From: Micavibrio sp.
Lineage (GTDB): Bacteria; Pseudomonadota; Alphaproteobacteria; UBA9219
Length of the DNA stretch: 64,000 nt
Direction: 5' to 3'
NCBI GenBank assembly: GCA_020718105.1
Contig: DYDA01000009.1
Coordinates: 2,783-66,782 of the forward strand
This document shows, in pieces, positions 45,335 through 60,502 of the stretch (the stretch's first letter is position 1; each line of letters starts with the position of its first letter). The notes beneath the pieces are model-generated. The model was not told the DNA's origin. It saw only the letters and a list, made by a program, of their open reading frames with translations, and made no database searches. The translations under genes were made by a program, and so were the position numbers.

Positions 45335-45595
45335 CGTCGCATTCTGGCGCGATTCAAAGAGGCAGACAACACAAAAACACTTGTCACGCCAAAACTTTTC
45401 CCACACGACCTCTGCCAAAACGGCCTCAATCAGAATTGCAATAAAGGTCAGAATTCTAGCCGAAAAGGCCAAAATGCAAATTCGGCCAAATTGACGGCCT
45501 AAAAACGAGCAAATAGGCCAAATTCTCCTGTGGAATCACGCGCGGCCAATATCGATACTCACCTCATTGATTGAACCCGTATCGATGAGCATTAC

Positions 45596-47466: not shown

Positions 47467-47478
47467 ATGGAGAATTTA

Positions 47479-48696
47479 ATGAGCAAGAACAATCAAGATA
47501 CAATGCAATCAAACGCCTCAAAAGTCGTTTATCTCAACTATGCAGCAACATCGTTTCCCAAAAACCCAGATGTTGTGAATGTCTACAACGAAGCGCTTGC
47601 GCTGCTTCCAGGCGGAAATCGTCAAGGCATCGGCAAAGGAGGCCTCGTCGACGAAGCGCGAGAAATGCTTGCAACAGGCCTTAATGTCGGTAAAGAAAAC
47701 ATCTACTTTTCTAGCGGATCGACGCAAGCTCTCAACGAAATCATTTTGGGTTCTGTAAATTCGGGCGACCATTGCCTTTTCGATAATCGCTCACACAACT
47801 CGGTTGTGCGCCCTATGCACGAGCTGCCTTCTTCCATCGATGCGGAAATGTGCCCGCTTTATCGAGAGGATGAAACCCTTGATCTTGACGCTCTGACATC
47901 GCGCCTTAACACGACTACAAAACTTGTCTGCTTGGTTCACGCCAGCAACGTGACGGGCACGGTCTATGACATAAAAACGGTTATTTCCGCCGTCAGAGAG
48001 AAAGCTCCCCAATCAGTTGTCTTAGTCGATGCCGCTCAATCAGCTGGCGCCATTGATCTGAAGGACGCGCTCAAAGCGGATTATGTGGTATTTCAAGGGC
48101 ACAAACACCTTCATGCCCCACATGGCGCGGCAGTCGTGGTGGCCAAGCGGCACGTTCGCCCCGTCATTTTTGGAGGCGGCCAAACTTTAACGGGTCAGGA
48201 AGGCGACCCGCATCTGCTCGAAGTCGGGACGCAGAACCACGCTGCCATTTACGCCACCGCCGTTGCTTTCGGCATCGCGTCGGACAATCTTCTTAAGCAC
48301 CAGACACACGAACGCGCCCTCTACACAAAGCTACGGTCGGCGCTTGACGGGGTTTATGGGCTAGAACCGCTGCCAGTCAACCCCAAGTTCGACCACGTCT
48401 CTATTATGGCCTTCCGCACTAAGATGGGCACGCCGGAAGGAGATTGGGTTCCGTTCTTGCAGTCGAAAAATATCATCGCTCGCGGTGGGCTGCATTGTTC
48501 CCCGTGCCTGCATGAACAGCTTGGTTTGACGCAGTACGGAACGCTGCGCCTTAGCCTCGGCTGGTACACAACAGACAAGGACGTCGAAGCAGCGGCGCAC
48601 GCCATTCATGAGTTTTCGGATCATCTGAAGACGCATGGTCCGGCACATCCTGTACAGACAAGTTGTTCGGTGTCGTTTCCCTCTAACCGAAAATAA
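47479..48696 (+). CDS. Class V PLP aminotransferase, cysteine desulfurase (SufS-like)
   Basis: YLNYAATSFPK, HNSV, DAAQSAG, GHK PLP lysine, RGGLHCSP catalytic Cys. Confidence 0.85.
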   Translation: MSKNNQDTMQSNASKVVYLNYAATSFPKNPDVVNVYNEALALLPGGNRQGIGKGGLVDEAREMLATGLNVGKENIYFSSGSTQALNEIILGSVNSGDHCLFDNRSHNSVVRPMHELPSSIDAEMCPLYREDETLDLDALTSRLNTTTKLVCLVHASNVTGTVYDIKTVISAVREKAPQSVVLVDAAQSAGAIDLKDALKADYVVFQGHKHLHAPHGAAVVVAKRHVRPVIFGGGQTLTGQEGDPHLLEVGTQNHAAIYATAVAFGIASDNLLKHQTHERALYTKLRSALDGVYGLEPLPVNPKFDHVSIMAFRTKMGTPEGDWVPFLQSKNIIARGGLHCSPCLHEQLGLTQYGTLRLSLGWYTTDKDVEAAAHAIHEFSDHLKTHGPAHPVQTSCSVSFPSNRK

Positions 48697-48733
48697 TTCA
48701 GTTTTAGGGCATATATTTTTTGAGGATTATTCT

Positions 48734-49849
48734 ATGAACGAACAATTTAAACCGGCTATCGCCACAATTATGAACCTTCTTGGGCAGTCAAATATTGAAC
48801 TGCCCAATGAAGGGGGCGCTTTGGAGACGTTCCTAGACCGTGCGCTAGAATATCTTGCGGCAAGCCATGCCATTGGCTCTGTTGCCGAGCAGAAAGCCTA
48901 TATTCTAAGCCGCCTCGTTCCGGCAGAAAAGGCATCAAAGGGAAAGTTCAGCTTTGTTCTTGAACACAACATCGATCCTCAAAAAGGATCGACCGTTCCC
49001 ACAATCCAAGTCAGCGGAACCAGCGGAAACTATCACGCACTTATCATCAAGAGGCAGGACACCCTGCTTAAGGGCTATAAGTGCCAGCAACAACTTAAAA
49101 TAGCTGGAAACCTCTGCCAAGTCGGATTTGCAACAAGCCGCATACGGGCGGATGTTGATTTGGCCAGAGAGTTCCCCACACTGGACAGCCTGAAGAAAGG
49201 CTGCCGTATGGAAGGGCGTCCCATCATCTACTTCCTTGGTGCGGCACGGCGCTTTCCCGATGGAGGGGAGCAAGCCTCCGCTATCAAAGGACAAGTCAAG
49301 GCCGTCAACGCCATTTTTGATACGTTGGAGAGTGCCTTTGGTAACAACGTTATCATTGGAACGGGCGGTTGGGCTGGGACAAAAGAAGGATCGTTGGGCA
49401 TTCCCCGCATTGGTTACCTGCATGCTGTTTCGACTAACCAATTGATTTTGACGACAATGCCGCGTGTTGGGGCTTATGACCGGCATGAAAACCCAACACT
49501 CGAAGTGTTCTGCGGACAGGAATGGGGCGATGACTCTGCCGTGCTGGCCGCAACCTGCGATGCTGCCTTTGTCTTCAGGCCACATGGGACGTGGACACAA
49601 ATCGAGGTCGAGAATTTGCTCGCACAGGACAAGCCCTTCGTCGTGATCGATGACCCTAAAAACAGTCAATTGAGGTCAGACGAAAATAAGAAGCGGATCA
49701 GCACCCAAGGGGGGGACTATTTTGTCTATCGCCACCCTAAGACGGCGGCCAATGATTTATTGCGGAAGCTCAGCGAAGCGGGTTTTATATACTCACGGCG
49801 ACCGTCTCGCCGCCCCGCCGCTTTGCTTGCCGAACCCGCGCACAAATGA
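48734..49849 (+). CDS. Protein with C-terminal SLOG/LOG-like nucleotide-processing domain
   Basis: IIYFLGA, IGTGGWAG, CDAAFVF..HGTWTQIE...DKPFVVI resemble the LOG TGG and GGxGTxxE motifs. Confidence 0.5.
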   Translation: MNEQFKPAIATIMNLLGQSNIELPNEGGALETFLDRALEYLAASHAIGSVAEQKAYILSRLVPAEKASKGKFSFVLEHNIDPQKGSTVPTIQVSGTSGNYHALIIKRQDTLLKGYKCQQQLKIAGNLCQVGFATSRIRADVDLAREFPTLDSLKKGCRMEGRPIIYFLGAARRFPDGGEQASAIKGQVKAVNAIFDTLESAFGNNVIIGTGGWAGTKEGSLGIPRIGYLHAVSTNQLILTTMPRVGAYDRHENPTLEVFCGQEWGDDSAVLAATCDAAFVFRPHGTWTQIEVENLLAQDKPFVVIDDPKNSQLRSDENKKRISTQGGDYFVYRHPKTAANDLLRKLSEAGFIYSRRPSRRPAALLAEPAHK

Positions 49850-50574
49850 AGAGAATCGAGAACACAATGCATACTGCTACCAACATATTTTTCGATCTGG
49901 ACGGAACATTGACTGATCCCAAGGAAGGGATCGTCAACAGCATCGTTTTTGCTTTGGAACAAGTCGGACATGCCATCCCAACGCAGAAAGACCTCAACAA
50001 TCTGATCGGGCCTCCTTTACGGGATTACTTTGAGCGGGAGCTGGACGAGGAAAAAGCCAAGACCGCGATGAAGAATTTTGTACAGCATTACGATTTTGAA
50101 GGAAAGTGCCTGACGGAAAACGCGCTTTATCCAGAAATACCGAGTGTGCTCAACTTGCTTCGTCAACACGGCAAGAGGTTGTTCGTAGTTACGGCGAAGC
50201 CAAAGACCATTGCTGAAAAAATCGTCCGCCACTTTGGATTGGATTCGTACTTTCTTTGTGTATATGGAGCCGAACAGGACGAAACGCGGAGTGATAAAGT
50301 GAAGCTAATCTCCTACGTTCTCGGTCGTGAGCAGATAGCCCCCCAATCCGCCGTTATGATCGGCGACCGCAAACATGACATTTTGGGAGCACTAGCAAAC
50401 GGTGTGGCCAGCATTGGCGCACTATGGGGCTATGGCGAGCCAGGCGAGTTGAAAGCGGCGGGGGCGCAACGGCTGGCCAAGACGCCGCAAGATATCGTGA
50501 GATTTCTGTTGGAACCCGCTGTCCGATCTGTGGGACACGGATGCAGAATTTCCAAACCTTCTACAATGTGTTGA
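49846..50574 (+). CDS. HAD-family phosphatase (5'-nucleotidase/phosphoglycolate phosphatase-like)
   Basis: FDLDGTLTD, IGPPL, MIGDRKHD, WGYG. Confidence 0.92.
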   Translation: MKRIENTMHTATNIFFDLDGTLTDPKEGIVNSIVFALEQVGHAIPTQKDLNNLIGPPLRDYFERELDEEKAKTAMKNFVQHYDFEGKCLTENALYPEIPSVLNLLRQHGKRLFVVTAKPKTIAEKIVRHFGLDSYFLCVYGAEQDETRSDKVKLISYVLGREQIAPQSAVMIGDRKHDILGALANGVASIGALWGYGEPGELKAAGAQRLAKTPQDIVRFLLEPAVRSVGHGCRISKPSTMC

Positions 50575-50584
50575 GGCAGCAATA

Positions 50585-51898
50585 ATGACTGAAACATTTA
50601 GTTTTGATCTTGAGAAAGTTAGAACGAGAAACGCTCTCATTCACGCCAACTCCATCTTTTCAGGTCGGGGCGTGCGTCCAGATGCGCATCAGTCCGTTAC
50701 GAACATTAGACCGTTCGTCCGCGCCGTTGCCGCAGGCTCGCATCCGCAAATTTCTGTCGGCGAGAAAAAAAGTATCGTTCTTATTGGCCTCGACTCGATC
50801 AAACACAGTTTCGCGGAGAAAGTTTTCAAGCCAGATCACTTGGTTTGCATGACAAGCGTTTTTCCTTCGACGTCGATTCGTGTGTGGCCAACGGCCCTGA
50901 CGGGATATAGCCCCGAGACGTTTGGTTCCGTTGGCCCCGTTTTCTATGCCAAGGAAATCGACGCGCTGTACAATGCGCTGGATGACTCCTATCGGGTTCA
51001 AGAGTCGTTTGTTGTCGATCCCAAAGTAACCGACCAGCACCCCATAGGTAGCAAGGACAATCTTTTCAGTGACCTAAATGTTCTTGGTTTCCAAACCGTC
51101 TGCATCAACGGGTTCTATGCTCATAAAAAGAGTCGCTGGTCTCAGGCCATGCAAGAGAATGCCGGACGCTATGTGACGTCAAAGTACGATTGGCGCAATA
51201 TCACGATGCAACCCGACCTAATTGTCGCTTCCATTCGGGAAGACGTTTCTGAAGCCTTGACATCAATGAACAAAGGGCAAAATGCGCTTGTCTGGACGCT
51301 ATCAGATATCGATTGTTACGTGCATGAACATGGATATTCAGACAATTTAAAAACAGCGCTAGACGAATTAGACGGGTTTTTCCGCGAATTGGCTAATAAT
51401 GGCCACCTTGTAATCGCCTTTGCGGATCATGGGCAGGTTCCTCAAGTCGTCAGTACCTTTACCGAAGGCTGGGACAATATCCACAGCGATGAGAATTGCC
51501 GTAGGCCATCCGGCGGAGCTGGAAGAGTCCGGTGGAGTTATCCGCGTCCGGGGCACGAACAAGCCCTTAAAGAGCAAATCGAAGGTCTTTTGGGCGATAC
51601 CGCCGCCGTCATATGGCGCGCCGATCTTGAGAAGCTCGGCATCCTTTCATTAGGAGAAAATCTTAAGAGCCAGATTGGAGAGATTGTGGTTCTCGGTCTG
51701 ACCGAGGACTTTCCGTTGGCCCTGCACGGTGACGGCTTCATATATGAACACGGATCCGTAAGCAGAGACGAGATGCTCGTCCCCCTGATGATTTACAAGG
51801 CTGCCGCGAAAGAGGCGTCCGCCCATACACTTACTGTGCCATCGAGAGAAGACGCTTTGGCTCACCCCGCAACCTTCAACCCGAAACTGGGAGGATAA
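50585..51898 (+). CDS. Alkaline phosphatase superfamily nucleotide pyrophosphatase/phosphodiesterase
   Basis: [36 protein letters not shown] metal ligands. Confidence 0.82.
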
Positions 51899-51900
51899 AA

Positions 51901-53358
51901 ATGTCCGACAAATCTAAAAGTGAGAAAAACATGAAAAATCAGATGAAATTCTTCAATACATTGACGCGCGAGGCGCAGCCTCTTGCCCCGATTAATGCGA
52001 ACGAGATAGGGTTGTACACATGCGGCCCAACTGTTTACAGCTACGCCCATATCGGCAACCTGCGCACATATATTTTCGAGGATATCTTGCGCCGCGTTCT
52101 TGAAAAATCTGGCTATAGCGTCAAGCATGTGATGAACATCACCGATGTTGGCCATCTGCAATCCGATGCTGATGAAGGCGAAGACAAGATGGAAGTGGCG
52201 GCCCGGCGCGAAAAGAAGTCACCTTGGGAAATCGCTAAGTTTTTCGAATCCACCTTTTTCAGCGATTGCGCGGATTTGAATGTCCAGCGCCCACATGTCG
52301 TTTGCCGCGCTACAGAGCATATTCCGGAAATGATCGAATTCGTGAAAGCTCTTGAGGAAAAAGGCATCGCTTATGCCGTCGACGGCAACGTCTATTACGA
52401 TACGTCCAAGTTTTCTAGCTACGCTGATTTTGCACGGCTTGATTTCTCTCAAATGCAAGAATTTGGGCGCGTCGAGCAGGATTCGCGCAAACGCAATCCC
52501 CAAGACTTTGTGCTCTGGTTCTCTCAATCGAAATATCCGAACCAGATCATGAAATGGGATTCTCCTTGGGGCGTCGGTTTTCCGGGATGGCATATCGAAT
52601 GCTCGGCGATGGCCTCAAAATATCTTGGCGAGCAATTCGACATTCATTGCGGCGGCATCGACCACATTCCCGTTCACCACACGAACGAAATCGCGCAAAG
52701 CGAAGGCCGTTTCGGACACCGGTGGGTCAATCATTGGATGCATGGCGAGTTTCTCGTCTTGGACAAAGGAAAAATGTCGAAGTCCAAAGGAGGTACGCTG
52801 ACGGTCGCTACCTTGAAAGAACTTGGCTATGACCCGATGCACTTCCGCTATCTCTGCTTGAATGCACATTACCGAAGCCAGCTTAAGTTCAGCTACGACT
52901 CCTTGGATGGTGCGCGCAACGCCTATGAAACGCTCCAGCACAAGCAGGCGGATTGGGCGGCAGAACCAGAATCGCCCCTGTCGGCTCAAGACAAAAAGTT
53001 GGTCGCCGATTACGAAGGGCAATTTTGGAGCGCGATGACCGATGACCTCAATGCGCCCCTAGCGTTGTCCGCGCTTTGGACGGGACTTCGTGACGACCGG
53101 ATGTCAACGACGGCGAAACAAGCTCTTTTTGGGACGGTGAATGAGGTTCTCGGCATCACAAAGCCGGAAGAAGAAATGAAGTTGGCTCCTGAATTGGAAC
53201 AGCTCATCAAAGATCGAGAAGCGGCACGTGGCCAGAAGGATTGGAAGCGAGCCGATGAGCTTAGAGGCAAGCTGGAAGATCAAGGCATTCTTATAAAGGA
53301 TAGACCCAATGGAACGGATTGGTTCGTAAAAAAAAACAAAACTAGCCTGACACCCTAG
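51901..53358 (+). CDS. cysS: Cysteine--tRNA ligase
   Basis: [49 protein letters not shown]. Confidence 0.96.
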
Positions 53359-53411
53359 TTCTACAAGACAAAAAAGACTGATTTTACAACAACTTATTTT
53401 GGGAGGCTAAA

Positions 53412-54455
53412 ATGAGCACAGGGGAAATTTATGCCCTGACGGCAAAAGAGGCAACGGCACCGGCCATCGATCCTTGGAACAATGTAGTTCAAGAAGATTT
53501 AGCGCCGTTCATTCAATTCCACGGATTGCAGACCACTGATGAAATTCAGGGGCTCCTCGACAACGAGAAGCTGAGGCCGCTTGCTAAATCTGCGGTCTCC
53601 GGCATTGGCATTACAGACGATGTCATTGGTTTCCTTCAAAACAAGCCGTCTTCCGTGGTTGCTATTTCTGGTTTCGATACGGCAGGAGATCTGCACTTTG
53701 GCAATCTTCTTGTCCTCAAGCAGCTCATGATCCTTGGACAGAAAGGATGCCAAGTCAGGATTCCGCTTGCCGATCTTGAGGCCATTGCCGCGCGCGGTGA
53801 AGACAGCAAAACCTCTGAGGATCGCGCGAATTCGACCATGATTCCCAATCTTGTTCAGTTGGGATTTAAATCCGAAAGTGTTTACATCCGATCCACAGTT
53901 CCACGAATTCTGGACATGATGGCGGTCGTTTCTCGTGGCACAGCTCCTGATAAGATGGAAAAACTCTATGGCCGCGCACTTTCTGGGCCGGAGATTTTTT
54001 CACTGACTTTTATGGCAGCTGACCTGCTTCGGCCTCAAACAGAAGGCATCAAACACACGATTGCCGTTTATGGCATCGATGAAGCACCCCACATCCGGGC
54101 GATTAATCAGATTGCTATTGATGTAGGCCTGAAGCCCATTGCCGGTCTTTTTAGTCCCCTTGTGCCGAGCAAGCAAAACTCGTCAATCAAGATGAGCAAA
54201 AGCCTTCAGAAACGTGGTGCAAACCTGTCACTGACGGCGGCTGTCGAGGACGCACGCGATACGGTCATTCAGTACGAAGTACAAGACCCTTGCATGGTGA
54301 AAGCCTTGCGGAAGCATTTTTTGATTGGGTCTGTTCTGAGGGATGATGCCGTCGAGTGCGACCTCGAATGCGCCGCCTGCAAAAGAGAGTCCGGAGCTGC
54401 AATTTTCGGCTTTATGGCGAACAAAAACCTTATTCAGAAACTCGCAAATTTATAA
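53412..54455 (+). CDS. Divergent class Ic (archaeal-type TrpRS-like) aminoacyl-tRNA synthetase paralog
   Basis: IDPW, SGFDTAGDLHFGN, ADLEAIAARG, AADLLRPQ, GIDEAPH, KMSKS, C-x21-C-x3-C-x2-C. Confidence 0.8.
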   Translation: MSTGEIYALTAKEATAPAIDPWNNVVQEDLAPFIQFHGLQTTDEIQGLLDNEKLRPLAKSAVSGIGITDDVIGFLQNKPSSVVAISGFDTAGDLHFGNLLVLKQLMILGQKGCQVRIPLADLEAIAARGEDSKTSEDRANSTMIPNLVQLGFKSESVYIRSTVPRILDMMAVVSRGTAPDKMEKLYGRALSGPEIFSLTFMAADLLRPQTEGIKHTIAVYGIDEAPHIRAINQIAIDVGLKPIAGLFSPLVPSKQNSSIKMSKSLQKRGANLSLTAAVEDARDTVIQYEVQDPCMVKALRKHFLIGSVLRDDAVECDLECAACKRESGAAIFGFMANKNLIQKLANL

Positions 54456-54473
54456 ACCAAAGGAGATTTTCAA

Positions 54474-55481
54474 ATGGATAAGACAGAAAAAGCACTTAAA
54501 GTGATTGCGCCTTATATCGTCAAGACGCCTTTGCTCAAATCTAAGGATTTAAGCAAAAAACTCGGCTGCGAACTCTACTTCAAATATGAGCACCTGCAGG
54601 TGGCGGGATCCGTGAAGGCTAGAGGTTCTTTCCTGAAAGTTTTTTCCGCCGAACGGACAAATCCAAAGGGTTATGTGACAGCATCAAGCGGCAACCACGG
54701 TCTGAGCATTGCAATGGCTTCTCAGCAGGCTGGCGTAAAGCTGAAACTGTTCATGCCCGAAACAACACCTGAATCGAAAATTCAGAAAGTCAAAGCCTTG
54801 GGCGTCGACTTGGGCATAACCGGAACCTCATGGGACGATGCGAACGACGCCGCCTTCGCCTACGGAAAAGAGACCGGAGCCGAATTTATCCATGCCTTTG
54901 CCGATCCGACCATCATCTTGGGACACTCGACGGCTGCGCTGGAGTGTCTTCAGGATATGCCCTCGGTTGATATCGCTATTTGTTCCATCGGCGGTGGCGG
55001 CATTGCACACGGATTTTTGGGCTATCTAAAAAGAAAGCTCCCCAATCTGCGTTGCTATGGCGTCGAAACCTATGGCGCAGAGTCCATGCTGACGAGTTTT
55101 CAGCACAATCGCGTTATGACGATTCCTGAAATCACATCGAAGGCATCCGCCATCGGCGTGCGCGCGCCCGTGGACGAGACGTTCAGTTTTGCGAAAAAGA
55201 ACTTGAATGGCCTTGTCGCTGTCAGCGATTACGCTGCTGCGGTCGCCCAGACGACGATCCTGAATTACGACAAACAGCTCGTCGAGCTTGCGGCATCCTG
55301 CTGCGTGGCCGCCCTGCAAGCCGAGAAGATACCCAACATTCAAGGAAAGAAGGTGCTGGTGCTCTTGTGCGGCGGCAACACCACCATGTCTGAGCTTGGC
55401 CTTGAAGCTACAGCCCAGCCGAAGCCGCCAACATTTCTGGCAAACGACAAAAGAGCTGTTGTGTCCTGCTGTCAATTATAA
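54474..55481 (+). CDS. PLP fold-II serine/threonine dehydratase-like enzyme
   Basis: FKYEHLQVAGSVKARG, ASSGNHG, IGGGG, LCGGN. Confidence 0.88.
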   Translation: MDKTEKALKVIAPYIVKTPLLKSKDLSKKLGCELYFKYEHLQVAGSVKARGSFLKVFSAERTNPKGYVTASSGNHGLSIAMASQQAGVKLKLFMPETTPESKIQKVKALGVDLGITGTSWDDANDAAFAYGKETGAEFIHAFADPTIILGHSTAALECLQDMPSVDIAICSIGGGGIAHGFLGYLKRKLPNLRCYGVETYGAESMLTSFQHNRVMTIPEITSKASAIGVRAPVDETFSFAKKNLNGLVAVSDYAAAVAQTTILNYDKQLVELAASCCVAALQAEKIPNIQGKKVLVLLCGGNTTMSELGLEATAQPKPPTFLANDKRAVVSCCQL

Positions 55482-55493
55482 TTGGGGAACAAA

Positions 55494-56339
55494 ATGAAAG
55501 ATAAACAAAAAATTATTTTTACGATCATGGGATGCGGTTCGGCTTATGGCGTGCCGACGGCAGGAAACGGATGGGGTATCTGCGATCCCAATCATCCGGC
55601 GAACAGGAGACTGGCCTCGTCCGTTGTTCTGCGTTCGGAAACCGACACGATCATCATCGATCTTGGGCCTGACTTCCGCCAGCAGACATGCACGCACAAT
55701 GTACGAGAGATATCCGGCGTTTTGTTTACGCATTCCCACGCTGACCACATCACCGGGATATTTGAGCTGCCAATGTTTACGCAATGGCAAAGGGGTGACA
55801 TCCATTGTTTTGCGACACCTGAAACCTTGGTGGGCATCCAAAAAAGATTTCATTACCTGTTTGATCCGAACATCACGGTCTATCACTACGGCGGCGGAAG
55901 AATTCTTTGGCATGAAATCGAATATGGCCAAGAAATGGTCGTTGGCGACATGCCAATCCTTCCTTTTCAACAAGATCATGGCTTTATGTCCAGCACAGGG
56001 TTTCGCGTCGGCGACATAGCCTATTCGACGGACGTGAAAAAGATCGACGAAGCCAACAAAGCCTTTCTCAAAGATCTGAAAATATGGGTGCTCGATTGCA
56101 ACGGCATAGAGGTCAGCCCTGTCCACAATCACCTCGATCAGGCTCTCGCGTGGATTGAGGAGATAAAGCCTGAACGCGCCATCCTGACGCATCTCAGCGA
56201 GACCGTAGACTACGTTACAACAAGCAAGAAACTGCCGCCAAATGTCGAACTGGCAGTCGACGGCATGTCCTTTGAAACCTTTGTCCAAAGACCGACATGC
56301 CGTCGTCCTTTGCGTCAATATTCACCCAGCAACATATAG
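55494..56339 (+). CDS. PhnP-like metallo-beta-lactamase phosphodiesterase
   Basis: GCGSAYGVP, DLGPDFRQQ, THSHADH, YSTD, LTHLS. Confidence 0.9.
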   Translation: MKDKQKIIFTIMGCGSAYGVPTAGNGWGICDPNHPANRRLASSVVLRSETDTIIIDLGPDFRQQTCTHNVREISGVLFTHSHADHITGIFELPMFTQWQRGDIHCFATPETLVGIQKRFHYLFDPNITVYHYGGGRILWHEIEYGQEMVVGDMPILPFQQDHGFMSSTGFRVGDIAYSTDVKKIDEANKAFLKDLKIWVLDCNGIEVSPVHNHLDQALAWIEEIKPERAILTHLSETVDYVTTSKKLPPNVELAVDGMSFETFVQRPTCRRPLRQYSPSNI

Positions 56340-56349
56340 GAGAAGAGAT

Positions 56350-57381
56350 ATGAACGACGAAAACGGAAACTTCATTTACAAAGCTCGCCCTTCGCTTCAG
56401 GCGGGCACAAAAATTGGCATCGTGTCACCCGGAAGCTGGGACGATTCGCCCAATTATGGGTTTCTCGATGCGCTTAGGGCGTTTTGGGAAAAGAAGGGTT
56501 TTGATGTCTGCATCCATCCGCAGAATTACTACAAGGACGGCGTGCTTGCTGGTTCCGACGCGGCCAGAGCCAAAGCGTTTATGGACATGGTCAAGAATCC
56601 CGAAATTGGCGCAATCATGTTTGCGCGCGGATGTACGGGTTCCATCCATATTCTCGACATGCTCGATTATGATGCCATTAAGGCCAATCCAAAACCTATC
56701 ATTGGTTCTTCCGATACAACGACGCTGCTTCACGCGATAACAAAGAAAAGCGGCGTTGTGACATTCTATGGACCTATGGGCTGTCACTTCGCCGATCCGG
56801 CGAATGACCAGCGCACCTGCGATGACCTAATCACGGCGATCAATGCCGGAAATGAAGAGTACGAAATGACGTATCCTGAAGTCAGTTGTTTGCGTGAGGG
56901 AAAAGCCGAAGGATGGCTTGTTGGCGGGCACATGAACCGCATGCAGCTTCTCATGGGGACGCCGTATGACTGCCTTCCTCAAAGATCGCTGGTCGATGGC
57001 GTCGTTCTGTTTATTGAGACTGTGGACACAACCCGGCTTGAAATCGACAACATTTTAAGCCAGTTCCGTTTGGCCGGAAAGTTGCAGACCGTGCGGGGGC
57101 TTATTGTCGGGGAAATGCTGGGCGTACAAGATGGGGAGACCAGCTTGGCGCGAAAGGGAGAACGAACTTATGGCCGTGATGTTCAAGGCATTATCGCCAA
57201 GGCCATGAAAGAAATATCGCCCCGCGTTCCGGTCGTTTGGAACTTTCCCTGTGGGCACGGTTCGTATCTCTCGACGATGCCCATCGGGAGCCACGTTAGC
57301 CTCGCTACGAGCAAGCAAGATGGAACACGGCTCTCTTTCCGGCCTGTGCCGAAAAGTGCGCCGATTATGTGTTATCTGTAA
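56350..57381 (+). CDS. S66 peptidase (MccF / LD-carboxypeptidase family)
   Basis: IGIVSPGS, LAGSDAARA, GSSDTT (Ser), LFIET (Glu), PCGH (His). Confidence 0.88.
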   Translation: MNDENGNFIYKARPSLQAGTKIGIVSPGSWDDSPNYGFLDALRAFWEKKGFDVCIHPQNYYKDGVLAGSDAARAKAFMDMVKNPEIGAIMFARGCTGSIHILDMLDYDAIKANPKPIIGSSDTTTLLHAITKKSGVVTFYGPMGCHFADPANDQRTCDDLITAINAGNEEYEMTYPEVSCLREGKAEGWLVGGHMNRMQLLMGTPYDCLPQRSLVDGVVLFIETVDTTRLEIDNILSQFRLAGKLQTVRGLIVGEMLGVQDGETSLARKGERTYGRDVQGIIAKAMKEISPRVPVVWNFPCGHGSYLSTMPIGSHVSLATSKQDGTRLSFRPVPKSAPIMCYL

Positions 57382-58324
57382 ATAGCTCGGTGGAAAGGTA
57401 ACGCTCGGCACTGTCTGGCAAAAGCGTGACGATGGTCTTTCCGGCCATTTCGGGGCGCTTGGCAAGCTGGATCGCTGCCGCCACCGCTGCTCCGGATGAT
57501 ATACCAGCAAGGATGCCTTCCTTGCGCGCCAGATCCCGCGCGTGAGACAAGGCATCCTCGTTGGTGATATTCAAAATTTCATTAATTCCGCTGACGTTCA
57601 AAATGTCAGGGACAAAATTGGCCCCGATACCTTGGATCTTGTGAACGCCGGGTTTTCCACCTGTCAGGACGGGGCTGTTGGCAGGTTGAGCTGCGACTAT
57701 CCTGATATCGGGTTTGTGCTTGCGCAAGCCTTCAGACACGCCTTGCACAGTTCCTCCCGTTCCGACACCGGCCACAAAGACATCGACTTGCCCGTTTGTG
57801 TCCGCCCAAATTTCTTCTGCTGTGGTGCGCGTGTGAATGGCGGGATTGGCTGGATTGGAAAATTGACGCGGCATAATCGCATTCAGGCGCGTTTTGACGA
57901 CCTCTTCAGCCTTGCGGAGCGCGCCCGCCATGCCTTCTTCTGCGGGCGTCAGGATAATTTCAGCGCCCAAGAAGGACAGAAGCTTGCGTCGCTCAATAGA
58001 CATATTGTCCGGCATGGTCAAGACAAGACCATAACCCTTCACGGCGGCGATAAACGCAAGACCGATGCCTGTATTTCCAGATGTCGCTTCAACAAGAACG
58101 CCACCGGAAACCAGCGTGCCGTCCCGTTCGGCAGCTTCGATCATGCCCAATGCGGTCCTGTCTTTAACCGATGAAAGCGGGTTGAAGTATTCCAGTTTCG
58201 CCAGAACGGTGGCAACGCTTCCAGCCTCTTGAGGCATCCTGTTTAAGCGGACAAGCGGTGTTCCGCCAATGGTCTCAATGATATTTTGATAAGTGATACC
58301 GCGTGCGGGTGATAGATTCGACAT
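57365..58324 (-). CDS. cysK: Cysteine synthase A
   Basis: KLEYFNPLSSVKDR, ATSGNTG, GVGTGGT, HKIQGIGA, ERYLST. Confidence 0.96.
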   Translation of the reverse strand: MSNLSPARGITYQNIIETIGGTPLVRLNRMPQEAGSVATVLAKLEYFNPLSSVKDRTALGMIEAAERDGTLVSGGVLVEATSGNTGIGLAFIAAVKGYGLVLTMPDNMSIERRKLLSFLGAEIILTPAEEGMAGALRKAEEVVKTRLNAIMPRQFSNPANPAIHTRTTAEEIWADTNGQVDVFVAGVGTGGTVQGVSEGLRKHKPDIRIVAAQPANSPVLTGGKPGVHKIQGIGANFVPDILNVSGINEILNITNEDALSHARDLARKEGILAGISSGAAVAAAIQLAKRPEMAGKTIVTLLPDSAERYLSTELFTDNT

Positions 58325-58340
58325 GGATTTTCTCCTCGTT

Positions 58341-59201
58341 TCAATGATTTTCGGGAATAACGGCTTGATCCATTTCGTCTGCCGGTCGTGCACTTCTTGG
58401 CGCACCGACGATTTTTGCGGGGATGCCAGCAACCGTAGTGTGGGGAGGTACGTCCCGAAGCACTACGCTTCCTGCAGCTATGCATGCTCCGGCACCTATT
58501 TCGACATTGCCAAGGATCGACGCGCCCGCACCGATCATAACGCCCGAGCGCACTTTGGGGTGACGGTCGCCTTGCTCCTTGCCCGTTCCACCGAGCGTGA
58601 CATTGTGAAGGATGGAAACGTGATCTTCAACAATTGCCGTTTCTCCGATGACGAGGCCCGTCGCATGGTCAAGCATAATGCCGCTGCCAATCTTTGCGGC
58701 GGGGTGAATGTCTACGTCGTACAAAAGAGAACTGCGGTTCTGAAGGAGCAACGCATCGTCTGTTTCTCCATTCAGCCAAAGCACATGAGCCAGACGATGA
58801 ATCTGAAGGGCATGGAAGCCCTTAAAATACAGAAACGGCGTCAAAGCGTCCGTGACGGCGGGATCTCGTGCGACAACGGCCTCCAAGTCGCGGGAGGCCG
58901 CCAAAACAAGATCGGGGTGTCTTTCATAAAGACCAGACAGCCTTTTTTCCAAGACGCTCGGCGCAAGCAGCGCGTCCGTTTGTTGGTGCGAAAGTGTTCG
59001 GCTTAGGCTTTGGGGTAGACTCTCACTGTCCAAAATGATCGTCTGGATCAGGGTTGCCGATAAAGAGCCGTGTCGAAGCCTGTTTTCGGCAGCTAGGCGA
59101 AGTTTGAGCCAAAGCCCCTCTAAAGGCGAGGAACCTGCCTTTAGCAAAAAAGAGGCGGATTGTTTTGATGAGCTGAGCGCTCGTAAAGCGAAAATGTTCA
59201 T
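58341..59201 (-). CDS. cysE: Serine O-acetyltransferase
   Basis: RDPA, FKGFHALQ, DIHPAAKIG, DHATG, TLGGTGKE.GDRHPK. Confidence 0.95.
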   Translation of the reverse strand: MNIFALRALSSSKQSASFLLKAGSSPLEGLWLKLRLAAENRLRHGSLSATLIQTIILDSESLPQSLSRTLSHQQTDALLAPSVLEKRLSGLYERHPDLVLAASRDLEAVVARDPAVTDALTPFLYFKGFHALQIHRLAHVLWLNGETDDALLLQNRSSLLYDVDIHPAAKIGSGIMLDHATGLVIGETAIVEDHVSILHNVTLGGTGKEQGDRHPKVRSGVMIGAGASILGNVEIGAGACIAAGSVVLRDVPPHTTVAGIPAKIVGAPRSARPADEMDQAVIPENH

Positions 59202-59288
59202 TTGAGGTCTCTGTGGTTCGCCTGAAAATCAGGCTTGTTGTTCCTTGTGGCGCAAGCGCCTCTAACCTCGCGGCAACCGCGAGAAAAA

Positions 59289-59318
59289 TTAGTTACAAGG
59301 ACAACAACAGAGAAACAT
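59289..59318 (-). CDS. Cys-rich leader peptide MFLCCCPCN (putative attenuator of cysE-cysK)
   Basis: ATG TTT CTC TGT TGT TGT CCT TGT AAC TAA; GGAG 10 nt upstream; complementary to cysE start region. Confidence 0.8.
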   Translation of the reverse strand: MFLCCCPCN

Positions 59319-59349
59319 GAACCTACGGCTCCATATAGTTAACGAGGTC

Positions 59350-59378
59350 ATTTTACTTATTTTCAGCAATGAAGTCAA
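59350..59378 (-). promoter_or_regulatory. Sigma70 promoter for leader-cysE-cysK
   Basis: TTGACT-17 nt-TAAAAT. Confidence 0.75.
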
Positions 59379-59416
59379 CCAAATGCGTTCTACACTGGTT
59401 GCAAGGCAAGAAGATT

Positions 59417-59650
59417 TCATCGGCACGGAAGCAACAGCTTGCGAAAAACACTATAATCTATAAGCACTTCAGTAAACGCAGCATCTTTCGGAGCATTTTC
59501 GACCTCAGCAGCCAGCTTGTCCTGAAACTCGCGGCTATATTCCTTGATCGGTGGGCAAACGCAGGCGGGGTTAGAACTTGCCGTTTCGCAGGCGCTTAAC
59601 GAGATCAGCACGAGTGCGAGGAGCATCCATCGTTGCACGGAGTTGAGCAT
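59417..59650 (-). CDS. Phage o-spanin (Rz1-like) lipoprotein
   Basis: LSAC lipobox, CVCPP; overlaps the upstream TM gene in another frame. Confidence 0.65.
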   Translation of the reverse strand: MLNSVQRWMLLALVLISLSACETASSNPACVCPPIKEYSREFQDKLAAEVENAPKDAAFTEVLIDYSVFRKLLLPCR

Positions 59651-59810
59651 CTTTGATCTCCACGATTTTCTTGAGTTGGTCATAGCGTTCTGCGGTGCGG
59701 CCTGATTGCTTCGCGCCGAGAAGCACAGCGGCCACAGATGCGGCAATCGCGCCCCAGCCGATGATTTTTATGAGGTTGCTGGAAAACCAGCCCGTTATAA
59801 TCGTCCACAT
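59571..59810 (-). CDS. Phage i-spanin (Rz-like)
   Basis: N-terminal TM plus coiled coil; directly follows endolysin. Confidence 0.6.
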   Translation of the reverse strand: MWTIITGWFSSNLIKIIGWGAIAASVAAVLLGAKQSGRTAERYDQLKKIVEIKDAQLRATMDAPRTRADLVKRLRNGKF

Positions 59811-60475
59811 CAGCGCAGCCCTTTCCGATTGTCGTCGATACGCGCCCAGATCATCACCCCGATGCCGATCAGCGTGATTGCCAAAAGCAGCCATTTGGCA
59901 ATGTCGAGATAAGGCACGAGTGTTTGAAGCGCGTCACGGGCTGGATCAAGGCCGTCTTGTACCGCCTGCAGCGCCCCAAGGCCAACGGTTGCCGCCGTAG
60001 CGGCCTTACCTCCCCTTACGGTGCGCGTGTGTTGCAGATTTTTGGCCGGAGGCTCCACACCTGCCAGCACCAAGGCTTTGTCGATTTGTGCGCCCGTGTA
60101 AGGCTGCTGGCCGTTCTCGTGCTGGATAATGGCTTCGACAAGGGGCTTCAGGTCGGCGTGGGCGTGCATGTCAAGCGTTTGGTCTGGTGCAAAACCCGTC
60201 TCGTCCGAAACAGCCTTGGTGTACGCCGCCGTGTCGTTTTCATTCGGGGGAGCCCAGCGCTCGATGATCTGCCGTATTGTTCGCAACCCGTGTTTGACCT
60301 GATAGACGATTAAGACGCGCGCCATCGCTCGGATGCCATAAATCTGGCTCTTAAACATGAAAAAATCAGGATCCGTCTGCTGTTCAGCCAACCCTTGCCA
60401 TGCGGTATCCGTCCGGCGAAGATTGCCCGGATTGTTATTACGGACACCTCGTGATAGTTTTTCTTGAGTCGACAT
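59810..60475 (-). CDS. Phage lysozyme-like endolysin/virion protein with C-terminal TMs
   Basis: RGVRNNNPGNLR, GIRAM, RWAPPNENDT.AY, IIQHENG; AAAGGAGG RBS. Confidence 0.8.
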   Translation of the reverse strand: MSTQEKLSRGVRNNNPGNLRRTDTAWQGLAEQQTDPDFFMFKSQIYGIRAMARVLIVYQVKHGLRTIRQIIERWAPPNENDTAAYTKAVSDETGFAPDQTLDMHAHADLKPLVEAIIQHENGQQPYTGAQIDKALVLAGVEPPAKNLQHTRTVRGGKAATAATVGLGALQAVQDGLDPARDALQTLVPYLDIAKWLLLAITLIGIGVMIWARIDDNRKGLR

Positions 60476-60502
60476 AAGTAAACCTCCTTTCAAGGATTTA
60501 AG

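Follow-up and report, generated by a model that had tools for sequence, protein, structure and literature searches.

A divergent archaeal-type TrpRS homologue with conserved ATP-binding motifs and a deleted anticodon loop, encoded in a mobile accessory operon of Micavibrio sp.

Introduction

Repurposed aaRS cores constitute a recurring source of new chemistry, as illustrated by the CDPSs, MshC, the hydrazine synthetases and the albomycin enzymes. In GluQRS/YadB, and in the CysRS paralogue MshC, an aaRS core adenylates an amino acid for a non-canonical acceptor, and GluQRS sets the precedent of a truncated aaRS paralogue that aminoacylates a modified base. The CDPSs, as described in PMC3105412, have neither HIGH nor KMSKS, are devoid of the C-terminal domain, and take aa-tRNA as their substrate in place of ATP. 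A further system is PyrN-C, the MetRS-like domain of bacterial hydrazine synthetases: this class I aaRS-derived domain retains a HIGH-type motif, adenylates an amino acid and hands the acyl group of the bound aminoacyl-adenylate over to a small acceptor other than tRNA (10.1101/2025.08.22.671884). Judging from a title in the reference list of that preprint, PyrN-C belongs to a cupin/MetRS-like enzyme family.

Duplicates of aaRS genes within accessory clusters are reliable beacons for aaRS-inhibiting antibiotics. As outlined in a review of natural Trojan-horse aaRS inhibitors, aaRS genes located inside inhibitor clusters, with a duplicate elsewhere, serve immunity or act as donors, AbmK and AgnB2 being examples, and a role is likewise assigned there to MccF (PMC8323819); aaRS genes are also described in the tiarin clusters (10.64898/2025.12.02.691738).

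In this work, we analysed a window of 64,000 nucleotides (the whole stretch studied, positions 2,783 to 66,782 of contig DYDA01000009.1, assembly GCA_020718105.1) from Micavibrio sp., and focused on a gene resembling that of an archaeal-type TrpRS. The host is a groundwater bacterium. We describe the ancestry, motifs, distribution and genomic neighbourhood of this gene, and propose a role for its product.

Results

The TrpRS-like gene is functional and of archaeal-type ancestry

The gene and its translation signal were located as follows.

53401–53406, forward strand: Shine-Dalgarno-like GGGAGG, 5 nt before the ATG, recognised by reading the sequence
53412–54455, forward strand: TrpRS-derived class Ic paralogue of 347 aa with an ATG start, from the ORF list and PF00579

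Comparison with a 96%-identical metagenome copy yielded a dN/dS of 0.023 at a dS of 0.85; against a 74% homologue the ratio was saturated. Because of this low dN/dS and the strong Shine-Dalgarno sequence, we consider the ORF a real, functional gene under strong purifying selection.

The sole Pfam match of the protein was PF00579, at 56 bits. The TrpRS equivalog score was not reached in the NCBIfam models, the best of which, NF008925, gave 101.3 bits against a cut-off of 451, followed by NF008926 (78.3 against 320) and TIGR00233 (56.4 against 176.75). The closest PDB sequence match was the TrpRS of A. pernix (3a04, E 8e-28), and the top Foldseek matches were 3a04 (E 1e-13, TM 0.74) and 3jxe; the AF2 model, with a pLDDT of 80.9, includes a C-terminal helical domain. 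Since the best NCBIfam, PDB and Foldseek matches are all archaeal/eukaryotic TrpRS, the product is a divergent homologue of archaeal-type TrpRS, with the class I Rossmann fold and both signature motifs of HIGH type and KMSKS, as indicated by HFGN, KMSKS, PF00579 and the match to TrpRS structures.

The gene is supernumerary and rare

A canonical bacterial TrpRS is encoded on another contig (C42) of the same genome, so the TrpRS-like gene is supernumerary; similarly, one homologue (P0010) is accompanied in its Chloroflexi genome by canonical TrpRS and TyrRS. Only 8 homologues were recovered among 5.8 billion proteins, and a profile search of 60 related genomes found the gene in none. Pattern scans of genome contigs gave no hit in a first round and a single locus, in a Chloroflexi MAG, in a second; there the gene has different neighbours and is flanked by apparent transposase fragments. 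The corresponding scan of metagenomes returned two close loci, that of viral contigs no relative; among plasmids, the sole hits were two trpS genes of haloarchaea, 25-26% identical. A protein-atlas search with the TrpRS-like protein retrieved only generic W/Y synthetase clusters.

An aquifer DNA run from an independent source (X2) also contained the genomic island that holds the gene (see below): 36 of 37 pieces reached at least 99% identity, and 28 of 30 bins had some depth. A run from a metatranscriptome library (X3) contained contigs at the same level of identity (28 of 31 pieces; 28 of 30 bins), which do not prove transcription; in this run there were no contigs in 53336-53856 and little in 53857-54377. 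A further run (X4) comprised only parts of the island, at 90-95% identity.

The ATP-binding motifs are retained and the substrate side is altered

The main active-site features, numbered by residue of the TrpRS-like protein, are these.

53676–53705, forward strand: HIGH-type ATP motif D89-T-A-G92...H95-F-G-N98, in which TAG replaces the canonical PSG
53778–53780, forward strand: Glu123, placed by alignment to 3jxe; elsewhere this residue is the partner of the substrate alpha-amino group
54012–54014, forward strand: Met201, which is Gln in canonical relatives
54069–54083, forward strand: Y220-G-I-D-E224, the GxDQ motif, in which Glu stands in place of Gln
54189–54203, forward strand: KMSKS, the second ATP-binding motif, invariant in the nine-sequence alignment

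A sequence-only reading of this DNA had listed HFGN and KMSKS as retained, together with three segments characteristic of archaeal TrpRS, and each of these was recovered in the translation and the alignment: H95-F-G-N98 and K260-M-S-K-S264, both invariant, and I19-D-P-W22 (whose DPW lies in the N-terminal extension), A120-D-L-E-A...A-R-G129 and A203-D-L-L-R-P-Q209. In all 9 aligned sequences, which are 37-93% identical to the query, H95, G97, N98, E123, M201, YGIDE, KMSKS and the four Cys described below are invariant, as are D89, A91, G92 and D223 of the GxD. This invariance across nine sequences, taken with the low dN/dS, places the motifs beyond chance.

Two replacements claimed by the same reading, GxDQ to GIDE and PSG to TAG, proved to be family traits. 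Position 224 is Glu in 12/12 family members and in 14/14 other GxDE lineages, and Gln in 32/32 canonical relatives, so the GxDQ Gln expected of a TrpRS is missing; at positions 90-91, P and S are found in 28/32 and 30/32 canonical archaeal-type relatives, respectively. Position 201 is Met in the whole family (12/12) and in 11 of the 14 other GxDE lineages, and Gln in 28 of the 32 canonical relatives. Altogether, the replacements peculiar to the family comprise Gln to Met201, Gln to Glu224, PS to TA, Gln to Arg160 and Arg to Asn232. Conversely, Glu at position 123 is common to all 12 family members and all 32 canonical relatives, and its counterparts, Glu116 of P. horikoshii TrpRS and Glu199 of human TrpRS, are described as forming a salt bridge to the substrate alpha-amino group (PMC2831299).

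The proposal of an altered substrate pocket is in keeping with family-specific changes such as Met201 and Glu224, but several other of its positions are common to the genuine TrpRS of A. pernix. At three pocket positions this enzyme has the same Ile/Leu, Pro/Ala and Ala replacements, and the positions that recognise indole in the P. horikoshii and human enzymes are non-Tyr/non-Gln in A. pernix as well; as A. pernix TrpRS shares these replacements, the case for a changed amino-acid specificity is weakened.

These observations bear on whether the protein might be a working but very divergent TrpRS, kept as an inhibitor-insensitive spare for self-resistance or against a competitor's TrpRS inhibitor. 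All catalytic class I motifs are present, some pocket replacements recur in a genuine TrpRS, and aaRS duplicates in clusters are usually described as resistant target copies (PMC8323819; 10.64898/2025.12.02.691738). However, the protein scores 101 bits where the family cut-off is 451, the Gln to Glu change in GxDQ separates the entire family from every canonical relative, and the anticodon loop is deleted (see below); moreover, an archaeal-type enzyme would face the bacterial tRNA-Trp identity elements G73 and A1:U72 in place of the archaeal A73, as these are given in PMC1538984. We therefore regard a spare TrpRS as quite improbable. The earlier claim that this is not a translational TrpRS thus gains indirect support, from the canonical TrpRS elsewhere in the genome, the low family score, the GxDE and the lost loop.

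The anticodon loop is deleted and the Cys4 site is inherited

Downstream of the KMSKS region, two further features were delimited.

54282–54290, forward strand: site of the TGGR-loop deletion, 14-16 residues, from the alignment and an HMM alignment to 3a04
54291–54380, forward strand: C294-x21-C316-x3-C320-x2-C323, a putative Fe-S (or metal) site, followed by Lys324

In canonical relatives, the stretch that leads from the KMSKS region to the first Cys includes A-[LF]-T-G-G-R-x-T-x-E-E-Q...G-G. The TGGR loop is absent from 12/12 family members, in agreement with the deletion noticed in the sequence-only reading, and with it the anticodon-binding loop of a TrpRS is gone; the equivalent alpha10-alpha11 loop of human TrpRS is described as wrapping the anticodon triplet (PMC1538984). 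According to the same source, a Lys following the last Cys/Thr-Gly position is strictly conserved for anticodon binding. Lys324, immediately after the last Cys, corresponds to it by position and is retained by the query and by 7/12 of the family, so that some contact with RNA may persist.

The resemblance of the Cys motif to that of Thermotoga-type TrpRS, pointed out earlier, is genuine: the T. maritima enzyme has C-x22-C-x6-C-x2-C in its anticodon-binding domain and is reported to bind a [4Fe-4S] cluster there (PMC2954223). A special link to Thermotoga did not hold, as the motif is ancestral. The same four columns are Cys in 26, 26, 26 and 24 of 32 canonical archaeal-type relatives, and also in 3a04, with a usual spacing of C-x~23-C-x6-C-x2-C, the second gap being x3 in the query. 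The four Cys are thus inherited from canonical archaeal-type TrpRS, and only their spacing is altered. Within the wider family the Cys4 motif occurs in 10 of 12 members, P0011 and P0012 having no Cys motif.

The retention of a C-terminal helical domain, the Cys4 site and Lys324 would be expected of an enzyme still acting on RNA, which could transfer an amino acid to tRNA or another RNA at a non-canonical site, as GluQRS does, or charge a non-Trp tRNA through Cys4/Lys324. Nevertheless, the loop making most of the anticodon contacts is gone, there is no tRNA gene inside the island, and two family members dispense with the Cys motif altogether; we judge an action on RNA to be improbable.

The gene lies in a tight operon rich in hydrolases

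The TrpRS-like gene belongs to a tight operon of 10 genes, 46930-57381, the other members of which, and the convergent gene that follows, are given below.

46930–47466, forward strand: NUDIX hydrolase, operon gene 1 and last gene of the conserved left flank
47467–48696, forward strand: class V PLP enzyme of the cysteine-desulfurase family (TIGR01977, 205.9 bits against a cut-off of 377)
48734–49849, forward strand: unknown protein, possibly SLOG/LOG-like; the ORF may start at 48635
49846–50574, forward strand: HAD phosphatase
50585–51898, forward strand: alkaline-phosphatase-superfamily phosphodiesterase / nucleotide pyrophosphatase-like protein (PF01663, 35.1 bits)
51901–53358, forward strand: second full-length CysRS, CysRS2 (TIGR00435, 470.9 bits, above the 340-bit cut-off)
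54474–55481, forward strand: fold-type II PLP enzyme, Thr/Ser dehydratase- or racemase-like (PF00291, 224.7 bits)
55482–56339, forward strand: MBL-fold hydrolase (PhnP / PRK02113-like)
56350–57381, forward strand: S66 peptidase (PF02016, PF17676); the ORF may start at 56242
57365–58432, reverse strand: cysteine synthase CysK, convergent (TIGR01139, 426.6 bits, above the 351-bit cut-off)

A better-scoring CysRS is encoded on contig C32 (399 bits, against 326 bits for CysRS2), and the pair are 32.5% identical; thus, as in aaRS-inhibitor clusters, the operon has housekeeping counterparts elsewhere in the genome, for CysRS on C32 and for TrpRS on C42. An MshC-like identity of CysRS2 was rejected, as it passes the cysS model and reaches 212.7 bits against the 485-bit cut-off of TIGR03447. 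The fold-type II PLP enzyme falls short of all NCBIfam equivalog cut-offs, and in the PDB it is closest to Thr deaminases and Ser racemases. By PDB matches, the S66 peptidase, a putative immunity enzyme of the MccF type (which cleaves aminoacyl-nucleotides) and the product of one of 3 S66 genes in the genome, is nearer to MccF (96 and 84 bits) than to LdcA-type enzymes (44 and 34 bits). The phosphodiesterase-like protein had no PDB sequence match, and the unknown protein had no Pfam, NCBIfam or PDB match; for the latter, an atlas match to LSDAT/LDcluster4 clusters at 0.90 serves as a lead only, and the single-sequence AlphaFold pLDDT is 35.5.

The order CysRS - TrpRS-like - PLP also occurs in the metagenome loci L005 and L006. 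The linkage to CysRS2 and the PLP enzyme was seen only among close homologues (at least 73% identity): when the best 120 PLP and the best 120 CysRS2 homologues were compared with the 42-48%-identical TrpRS-like proteins no longest contig of equal length was found, and the only match that this comparison yielded, at 6654 bases, belongs to the 73-74% group. Promoter- and terminator-like sites were no more frequent than in shuffled sequences.

A simple hydropathy scan of 30 ORFs in 39.5-63.8 kb revealed no multi-pass membrane exporter. Nor was any obvious enzyme for building a scaffold (NRPS, ATP-grasp, ThiF-like) recognised in the operon and its neighbours, where one operon protein is unmatched. 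Neither TfxB/C-like genes, as in a tiarin-type cluster, nor a ThiF/MccB-like gene, as in a microcin C-type cluster, were seen. Likewise, SepRS/SepCysS-like tRNA-dependent Cys synthesis was set aside, the class V enzyme matching the SepCysS model at only 23.6 bits, as was a selC*-type tRNA partner, since the island has no tRNA gene and the only one in the window is a tRNA-Ser (26309-26401).

As the operon is hydrolase-rich, detoxification or salvage fits its composition as well as synthesis does. The hydrolases could dismantle imported aminoacyl-nucleotide antibiotics, and the TrpRS-like protein could bind or sequester adenylate mimics, or recycle the amino acid; five hydrolases, including the MccF-like peptidase, and the lack of an exporter or scaffold-building enzyme in the regions searched accord with such a cassette. 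Yet invariant catalytic motifs and very strong purifying selection favour an enzyme over a sponge, and sister cassettes include clear biosynthetic enzymes, so we find a resistance or salvage cassette very improbable.

The operon is a mobile accessory cassette at a hypervariable locus

Between ~47.5 and 57.4 kb the window had no DNA match in 20 relatives, and both flanks recur: the left-flank DNA, 45429-47467, is found in relatives and on contig C17 of the same genome, and the right flank is marked by the following features.

59473–60442, unstranded: right-flank repeat, found in relatives (at least 8 places in G008) and on contig C17 of the same genome
59810–60565, reverse strand: ORF of 251 aa with no family match

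The GC content of this island is unremarkable (0.508, against 0.526 for the genome). The same locus holds TyrRS + YcaO + radical SAM on contig C17 of the genome itself (G000), SerRS + carbamoyltransferase + methyltransferase in a relative (G005) where the SerRS is a second copy, and TyrRS + AMP-binding-like enzymes on contig C2 of another (G008). Other occurrences of the hotspot carry phage-defence-like cargo (Gabija-like, DUF499/DUF1156/helicase, NYN and WYL on contig C99 of G008) or RmuC, WYL, HD and NUDIX (G011), and every cassette seen begins with the conserved NUDIX gene. Thus, the operon is a mobile accessory cassette at a hypervariable locus.

This setting suggests an alternative centred on nucleotides and on conflict or defence, in which the enzyme derived from an aaRS would synthesise, inside the cell, an aminoacyl-nucleotide with a signalling or toxic role, or a compound like a dinucleoside polyphosphate, that the NUDIX, HAD, phosphodiesterase-like, MBL and SLOG-like proteins would process or degrade. 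The cargo of these last two relatives, the constant NUDIX gene, the absence of an exporter in the scan above and the possible SLOG protein all point in that direction. On the other hand, full-length duplicate aaRSs beside YcaO, radical SAM, carbamoyltransferase and methyltransferase resemble metabolite clusters, and the SLOG assignment is a lead only; we hold a conflict or defence function to be rather improbable.

Discussion

We tentatively propose, giving the idea a little less than an even chance, that the TrpRS-like protein is an ATP-dependent amino-acid-activating ligase that operates outside translation, in a small-molecule pathway of aminoacyl-nucleotide type. The enzyme would descend from an archaeal-type, Cys4-bearing TrpRS and would subsequently have left translation. 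Because the HxGN, KMSKS, the Asp of GxD and the alpha-amino-binding Glu are kept, binding of ATP and an alpha-amino acid with formation of an aminoacyl-adenylate is the most likely catalysis; because the CCA-anticodon loop is lost and substrate-side residues that are near-invariant in canonical relatives are changed, the amino acid may be one other than Trp, and tRNA-Trp is probably no longer the acceptor. The original suggestion of an adenylating ligase for a non-Trp substrate is therefore plausible, given that the ATP motifs are kept and the gene context fits.

In the proposed pathway, the TrpRS-like enzyme would activate an amino acid and couple it to a small acceptor, probably one resembling a nucleoside or nucleotide. 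Its gene is co-transcribed with CysRS2, with PLP enzymes of Cys/Ser-type chemistry and with the possible SLOG protein, as well as with five hydrolases (NUDIX, HAD, phosphodiesterase-like, MBL and MccF-like S66) predicted to act on phosphate/nucleotide esters or aminoacyl-nucleotides. The product would be an aminoacyl-nucleotide-type metabolite of the aaRS-inhibiting kind; CysRS2 could then be an insensitive copy of the target, an aminoacyl donor, or both, and the S66 peptidase would carry out detoxification.

A broader proposition, which we advance as unlikely but worth stating, is that these proteins constitute an uncharacterised family of ligases, derived from TrpRS and bearing Fe-S, that attach an amino acid to a nucleoside or nucleotide in place of tRNA and yield a new class of aminoacyl-nucleotide antimetabolite against an aaRS, perhaps CysRS. 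Such a family would form a module of an 'aaRS cassette' hotspot hitherto overlooked, HTH-NUDIX-flanked and found in small-genome groundwater bacteria, with interchangeable clusters that each carry a spare aaRS (CysRS, TyrRS or SerRS). In the literature searched we found no description of a TrpRS-derived protein with an ATP site and Cys4 but no anticodon reading, and the one review of natural Trojan-horse aaRS inhibitors that was searched mentions no natural CysRS-directed compound (PMC8323819). Ligation of an amino acid to a non-tRNA acceptor, if true, would define a new enzyme family; considered alongside the adjacent spare CysRS and MccF-like peptidase, it would also hint at the existence of a natural compound of that type. 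Furthermore, the recurrence of the locus with different spare aaRSs offers a direct route to the mining of related clusters.

Comparison with known systems

Like the clusters of albomycin (AbmK), agrocin 84 (AgnB2) and the tiarins, the operon contains a duplicate aaRS, CysRS2, in an accessory setting, and an MccF-like S66 peptidase is encoded beside it; unlike them, it and its neighbours displayed no TfxB/TfxC, MccB/ThiF-like, siderophore or exporter genes. The TrpRS-like protein is itself unlikely to be a resistant target, since it is not a full aaRS.

With A. pernix TrpRS (3a04) the protein has in common the fold, the DPW-bearing N-terminal extension, the HIGH-type and KMSKS motifs, the alpha-amino Glu and the four Cys columns. 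It differs from canonical archaeal/eukaryotic-type TrpRS in the GxDE, Met201 and TAG, in the deleted TGGR loop and in a second Cys gap of x3 instead of x6; moreover, it is supernumerary beside a bacterial TrpRS and far below the family cut-offs.

Among aaRS-derived enzymes, GluQRS/YadB and MshC come from lineages different from that of the query. The CDPSs resemble it in being class Ic (TyrRS/TrpRS-like) Rossmann folds that function outside translation. The query nonetheless has a HIGH-type motif, KMSKS and a C-terminal helical domain, and it was correctly excluded from the CDPSs in the sequence-only reading, these enzymes being described as devoid of both motifs (PMC3105412). Finally, PyrN-C derives from the MetRS lineage and the query from that of TrpRS, and the KMSKS that is degenerate in the PyrN-C account (KFSTG) is intact in the protein described here.

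Ancestry and constraint of the TrpRS-like gene

53412-54455, + strand: TrpRS-like gene, 347 aa, ATG start

Inspection of the sequence places GGGAGG five bases 5' of the ATG. The product carries a single Pfam domain (tRNA-synt_1b, PF00579; 56 bits, residues 82-282) and its best NCBIfam models are archaeal-type TrpRS, the scores lying far under the curated cut-offs: 101.3 for NF008925 (cut-off 451), 78.3 for NF008926 (320) and 56.4 for TIGR00233 (176.75). A profile of its family matched in the PDB the TrpRS of A. pernix (3a04, E 8e-28) and then that of P. horikoshii (3jxe, 2e-9), and an AlphaFold model made from nine sequences (mean pLDDT 80.9, pTM 0.83) had 3a04, 3jxe and eukaryotic TrpRS structures as top Foldseek matches (TM about 0.74). 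The protein thus stems from an archaeal/eukaryotic-type TrpRS, in agreement with the archaeal-type descent proposed in the earlier sequence-only reading. Relative to a copy from a metagenome contig (96% identical), dN was 0.020 and dS 0.853 (dN/dS 0.023); therefore, this is a working, strongly constrained gene and not a decaying duplicate.

Motifs and substrate-side residues

Every motif listed in the sequence-only reading was found at its position in the protein:

IDPW, residues 19-22
DTAG, residues 89-92
HFGN, residues 95-98
ADLEA..ARG, residues 120-129
ADLLRPQ, residues 203-209
YGIDE, residues 220-224
KMSKS, residues 260-264
C294-x21-C316-x3-C320-x2-C323

In an alignment of nine sequences, whose members are 37-93% identical to the query, there is no variation at H95, G97, N98, E123, M201, Y220-E224, K260-S264 or any of the four cysteines.

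Table. Residues at seven compared columns in the family (12 rows), other GxDE sequences (14) and canonical sequences (32)
Position 224 (Gln of GxDQ): family Glu 12/12; other GxDE Glu 14/14; canonical Gln 32/32
Position 201: family Met 12/12; other GxDE Met 11/14; canonical Gln 28/32
Positions 90-91: family T 8/12, A 12/12; other GxDE L 4/14, S 10/14; canonical P 28/32, S 30/32
Position 160: family Arg 12/12; other GxDE Gln 8/14; canonical Gln 26/32
Position 232: family Asn 12/12; other GxDE Lys 6/14; canonical Arg 31/32
Position 243: family Ile 8/12; other GxDE Pro 7/14; canonical Pro 32/32
Position 220: family Tyr 12/12; other GxDE Leu 7/14; canonical Val 27/32

These seven rows give the family-specific changes; three further differences in the claimed altered pocket are not among them. 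Ile85 and Pro118 align with the residues reading the indole N-H in P. horikoshii/human TrpRS (Tyr77/Tyr159 and Gln111/Gln194, respectively), and Ala124 with the carbonyl-holding Lys117/Lys200; since A. pernix TrpRS has Leu, Ala and Ala at these columns, the three differences are a TrpRS-subtype trait and no evidence of a new substrate. Glu123 is kept throughout the family (12/12) and the canonical sequences (32/32), aligned to Glu116 of P. horikoshii TrpRS, which salt-bridges the substrate alpha-amino group (PMC2831299). Its retention, together with the new invariant charged residues Asp89, Glu224, Arg160 and Arg207, suggests a charged or polar amino acid as substrate, which we offer as a conjecture.

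C-terminal domain

Before the first cysteine, the canonical relatives have the segment A-[LF]-T-G-G-R-x-T-x-E-E-Q-[RK]-x-x-G-G. The suspected deletion of the TGG segment proved real, with 14-16 residues missing in the 12 family members (a gap in the family alignment; the alignment with 3a04 shows it as insertions). The corresponding alpha10-alpha11 loop of human TrpRS in complex with tRNA (Phe377, Ser378, Gly380, Arg381, Asp382, Ile384, His387) winds around the three anticodon bases and provides most contacts to C34, C35 and A36 (PMC1538984); with this counterpart deleted, the family has lost its main anticodon reader. Lys324, adjoining the last cysteine, is the positional counterpart of Lys431, termed strictly conserved (PMC1538984), and is kept in 7/12 members.

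The four cysteines are present in 10/12 members (P0011 and P0012 lack them), and the same columns are Cys in 26/32, 26/32, 26/32 and 24/32 canonical relatives, so the motif is inherited and not newly acquired. The likeness noted earlier to the [4Fe-4S] motif of T. maritima TrpRS (C-x22-C-x6-C-x2-C; PMC2954223) thus stands for the cysteines themselves, as an ancestral feature, but not for their spacing: canonical relatives share the T. maritima arrangement (C-x~23-C-x6-C-x2-C), whereas the family's middle gap is reduced from x6 to x3.

Phylogeny and distribution

An exhaustive profile search of 1.84 billion representatives returned 285 hits at E <=0.001 and 7 at <=1e-30. In a FastTree phylogeny of 126 rows (the query and 125 hits of 270-470 aa, out of 156 proteins), all rows with a recognisable GxDQ motif fell in one 81-row clade (support 98), and the query in a clade of 12 rows (support 97), 10 of which form its core (support 98). 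The remaining 45 rows, the query's clade included, form several long-branched lineages, mostly GxDE and lacking the GGR segment; in such a quick tree with long branches the deep order is unreliable. Further long-branched TrpRS-like lineages include P0013-P0018, P0020, P0024-P0027, P0044, P0092 and P0151, among others. The further GxDE lineages (Glu in 14/14; at the 201 column, Met in 11/14) also lack the TGGR loop, and some have no Cys motif or carry KMGKS. The paired Gln-to-Glu and Gln-to-Met changes seem to be the signature of a broader group of non-canonical TrpRS relatives that is still undescribed.

The family itself is very rare and uncharacterised. Among 5.8 billion proteins, a word-indexed search detected 8 homologues (93, 74, 73, 48, 44, 44, 42 and 42% identity), and a profile search (E <=1e-5) found the family in 0/60 related genomes, including 0/9 of the same genus and 0/27 from other genera of the taxonomic family. 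Pattern scans of 185,579 species genomes gave one locus, in a Chloroflexi MAG.

The host genome (1.91 Mb, 42 contigs, 96% complete) has four PF00579 matches: the TrpRS-like gene, a normal bacterial TrpRS (contig C42, 329 aa) and two TyrRS (C3, 413 aa; C17, 459 aa). The Chloroflexi MAG also encodes a canonical TrpRS (36% identical to that of the host) and a TyrRS, so the homologue is supernumerary there as well as in the host. On its contig of 5169 bases, this homologue (P0010, 37% identical) is flanked on both sides by ORFs whose translations read as transposase fragments, and is followed by ORFs whose translations read as a kinase-like (HRD-type motif) and a radical-SAM (CxxxCxxC) protein.

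The stretch is present in full in a groundwater metagenome run, X1, its possible source. In X2, an independent aquifer run from another study, it occurs at >=99% identity with some depth in 28/30 bins, and in X3, from an aquifer metatranscriptome library, contigs at >=99% cover most of the operon, such contigs being no proof of transcription.

The ten-gene operon

The gene lies in an operon of ten + strand genes (46930-57381; gaps of -4 to 53 bases), on which a cysK converges:

46930-47466, +: NUDIX
47467-48696, +: cysteine-desulfurase-family PLP enzyme (TIGR01977, 206 bits, below cut-off)
48734-49849, +: protein of no assigned family
49846-50574, +: HAD phosphatase
50585-51898, +: phosphodiesterase/nucleotide-pyrophosphatase-like protein (PF01663, 35 bits)
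51901-53358, +: CysRS (CysRS2; passes TIGR00435, 471 vs 340)
53412-54455, +: TrpRS-like gene
54474-55481, +: Thr/Ser-dehydratase- or racemase-like PLP enzyme
55482-56339, +: MBL hydrolase
56350-57381, +: S66 peptidase
57365-58432, -: bona fide CysK

The S66 peptidase, one of three in the host genome, scores 96 and 84 bits against chains of MccF, the microcin-C immunity protein, versus 44 and 34 bits against LdcA-type murein carboxypeptidases. CysRS2 is a second copy, the better-scoring CysRS being on contig C32. As the pair is only 32.5% identical and CysRS2 has relatives in distant taxa, its transfer between distant hosts is suggested; the next relatives (~57-60%) are named as Myxococcota, Patescibacteria and Alphaproteobacteria MAG proteins. 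The CysRS/TrpRS-like/PLP order recurs on two metagenome contigs, with the 96% and 74% TrpRS-like homologues, and only homologues at least 73% identical have been seen linked to CysRS2 and the PLP enzyme; the neighbours of the Chloroflexi homologue differ. CysRS2 can probably travel without the TrpRS-like gene, since proteins 88-89% identical to it lie on contigs 5.4 Mb and 533 kb long, and none of the 8 listed TrpRS-like homologues has a contig of either length.

A variable locus carrying extra aaRS genes

The 16.6 kb at 44000-60600 were searched as DNA against 20 relatives. The left flank (~44.0-47.47 kb; 70-76% identity) stops precisely where the NUDIX gene ends, the right flank (~59.47-60.44 kb) is 76-87% identical in several relatives' genomes, and ~47.5-57.4 kb has no match in the 20 relatives save ~150 bases common to ordinary cysS genes. 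Host contig C17 also has both flanks. Cargo beside such flanks was Pfam-scanned at six places:

This window: CysRS and TrpRS-like
Host C17:5566-13891: NUDIX, HTH, 580-aa PLP-decarboxylase-like, radical SAM, YcaO, TyrRS, AstE/AspA-like hydrolase
Congener G005, C1 ~180.9-206.6 kb: NUDIX, uncharacterised ORF, MBL, carbamoyltransferase, methyltransferase, SerRS, oxidoreductases
Related genome G008, C2: NUDIX, TyrRS, HAD, two AMP-binding-like proteins, aminotransferase, AstE/AspA-like hydrolase
Related genome G011, C10: PfkB kinase, AdoHcy-hydrolase-like, NUDIX, HD, then RmuC, WYL; no aaRS among 7 ORFs scanned
G008, C37: NUDIX, uncharacterised ORF, MBL; no aaRS in the only 3 ORFs scanned

A full-length aaRS is present at 4/6 places, and these genes are supernumerary: two SerRS N-domain matches occur in G005, the lower-scoring being the island copy, and W/Y-family matches number five in G008, three in G005 and two in G011. 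Copies of the same flanks enclose the C17 cassette, which resembles a RiPP- or thioamide-type cluster equipped with a spare TyrRS (459 aa) that has an N-terminal extension.

A seventh place, G008 C99, chosen for its two W/Y-family hits and outside the six-place count, holds Gabija-like genes (AAA_15/TOPRIM and UvrD-like helicase), DUF499/DUF1156/helicase, NYN and WYL adjoining a TyrRS and another W/Y-family gene that scores lower (398 aa); thus, the hotspot accepts defence-type cargo too.

Regarding the surroundings, no family is matched by flank ORFs 59810-60565 (-, 251 aa) and 44070-44834 (+, 254 aa), the relatives contain their DNA many times over, and the right flank occurs at at least 8 places in G008. 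A DUF4268 protein (60503-61441, +; 77 bits) lies just right of the island, and most ORFs at 59.4-63.8 kb lack a family match. About 5 kb to the left, adjoining an HTH gene (42249-42920), a 358-aa ORF (41209-42288, -) matches LPG_synthase_C/DUF2156 (38 bits, cut-off 27.5), the C-terminal domain of phosphatidylglycerol lysyltransferase, an aminoacyl-tRNA-dependent transferase fold.

Proposed role and comparison with known systems

The literature searched, with subscription journals and supplementary files outside its scope, held no description of such a TrpRS-derived family. The earlier observation is confirmed and its interpretation, a ligase for a non-Trp substrate, partly supported: the protein is probably an aaRS core repurposed outside translation. 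Possibly, at somewhat under even likelihood, it acts as an amino-acid-activating ligase in a pathway for an aminoacyl-nucleotide-type compound, in which CysRS2 would be an insensitive target copy and/or a donor, and the S66 peptidase and the phosphate-/nucleotide-ester hydrolases would serve maturation or self-protection. Hydrolases make up half of the operon's genes and no scaffold-building enzyme was recognised in or beside it, which would equally suit a detoxification cassette or one for intracellular nucleotide signalling or defence; among the 30 ORFs at 39.5-63.8 kb, no multi-pass membrane exporter-like protein was found.

Seen against the precedents of aaRS-inhibitor clusters and PyrN, a TrpRS-like ligase working with CysRS2 and hydrolases in an aminoacyl-nucleotide-type pathway is the most economical account, tentative as it is. 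Duplicate aaRS in accessory clusters are a known mark of aaRS-inhibitor clusters: the SerRS AbmK is insensitive to the inhibitor and in addition provides AbmF with seryl-adenylate, the LeuRS AgnB2 is resistant, and the S66 peptidase MccF confers self-immunity by cleaving aminoacyl-nucleotides (PMC8323819). The words CysRS, cysteinyl, TrpRS, tryptophanyl, TyrRS and Nudix do not occur in that review. Judged by Pfam families alone, the G005 cassette, with its carbamoyltransferase, methyltransferase and SerRS, is similar to the "putative seryl-nucleoside" clusters known from Proteobacteria, which are albomycin-warhead-like (PMC8323819). For each aaRS in a tiarin cluster there is a housekeeping duplicate, and the specificity of the cluster enzyme predicts the target (10.64898/2025.12.02.691738), and the hydrazine synthetase PyrN, through a class I aaRS-like, MetRS-like domain, adenylates an amino acid for a small acceptor (10.1101/2025.08.22.671884).
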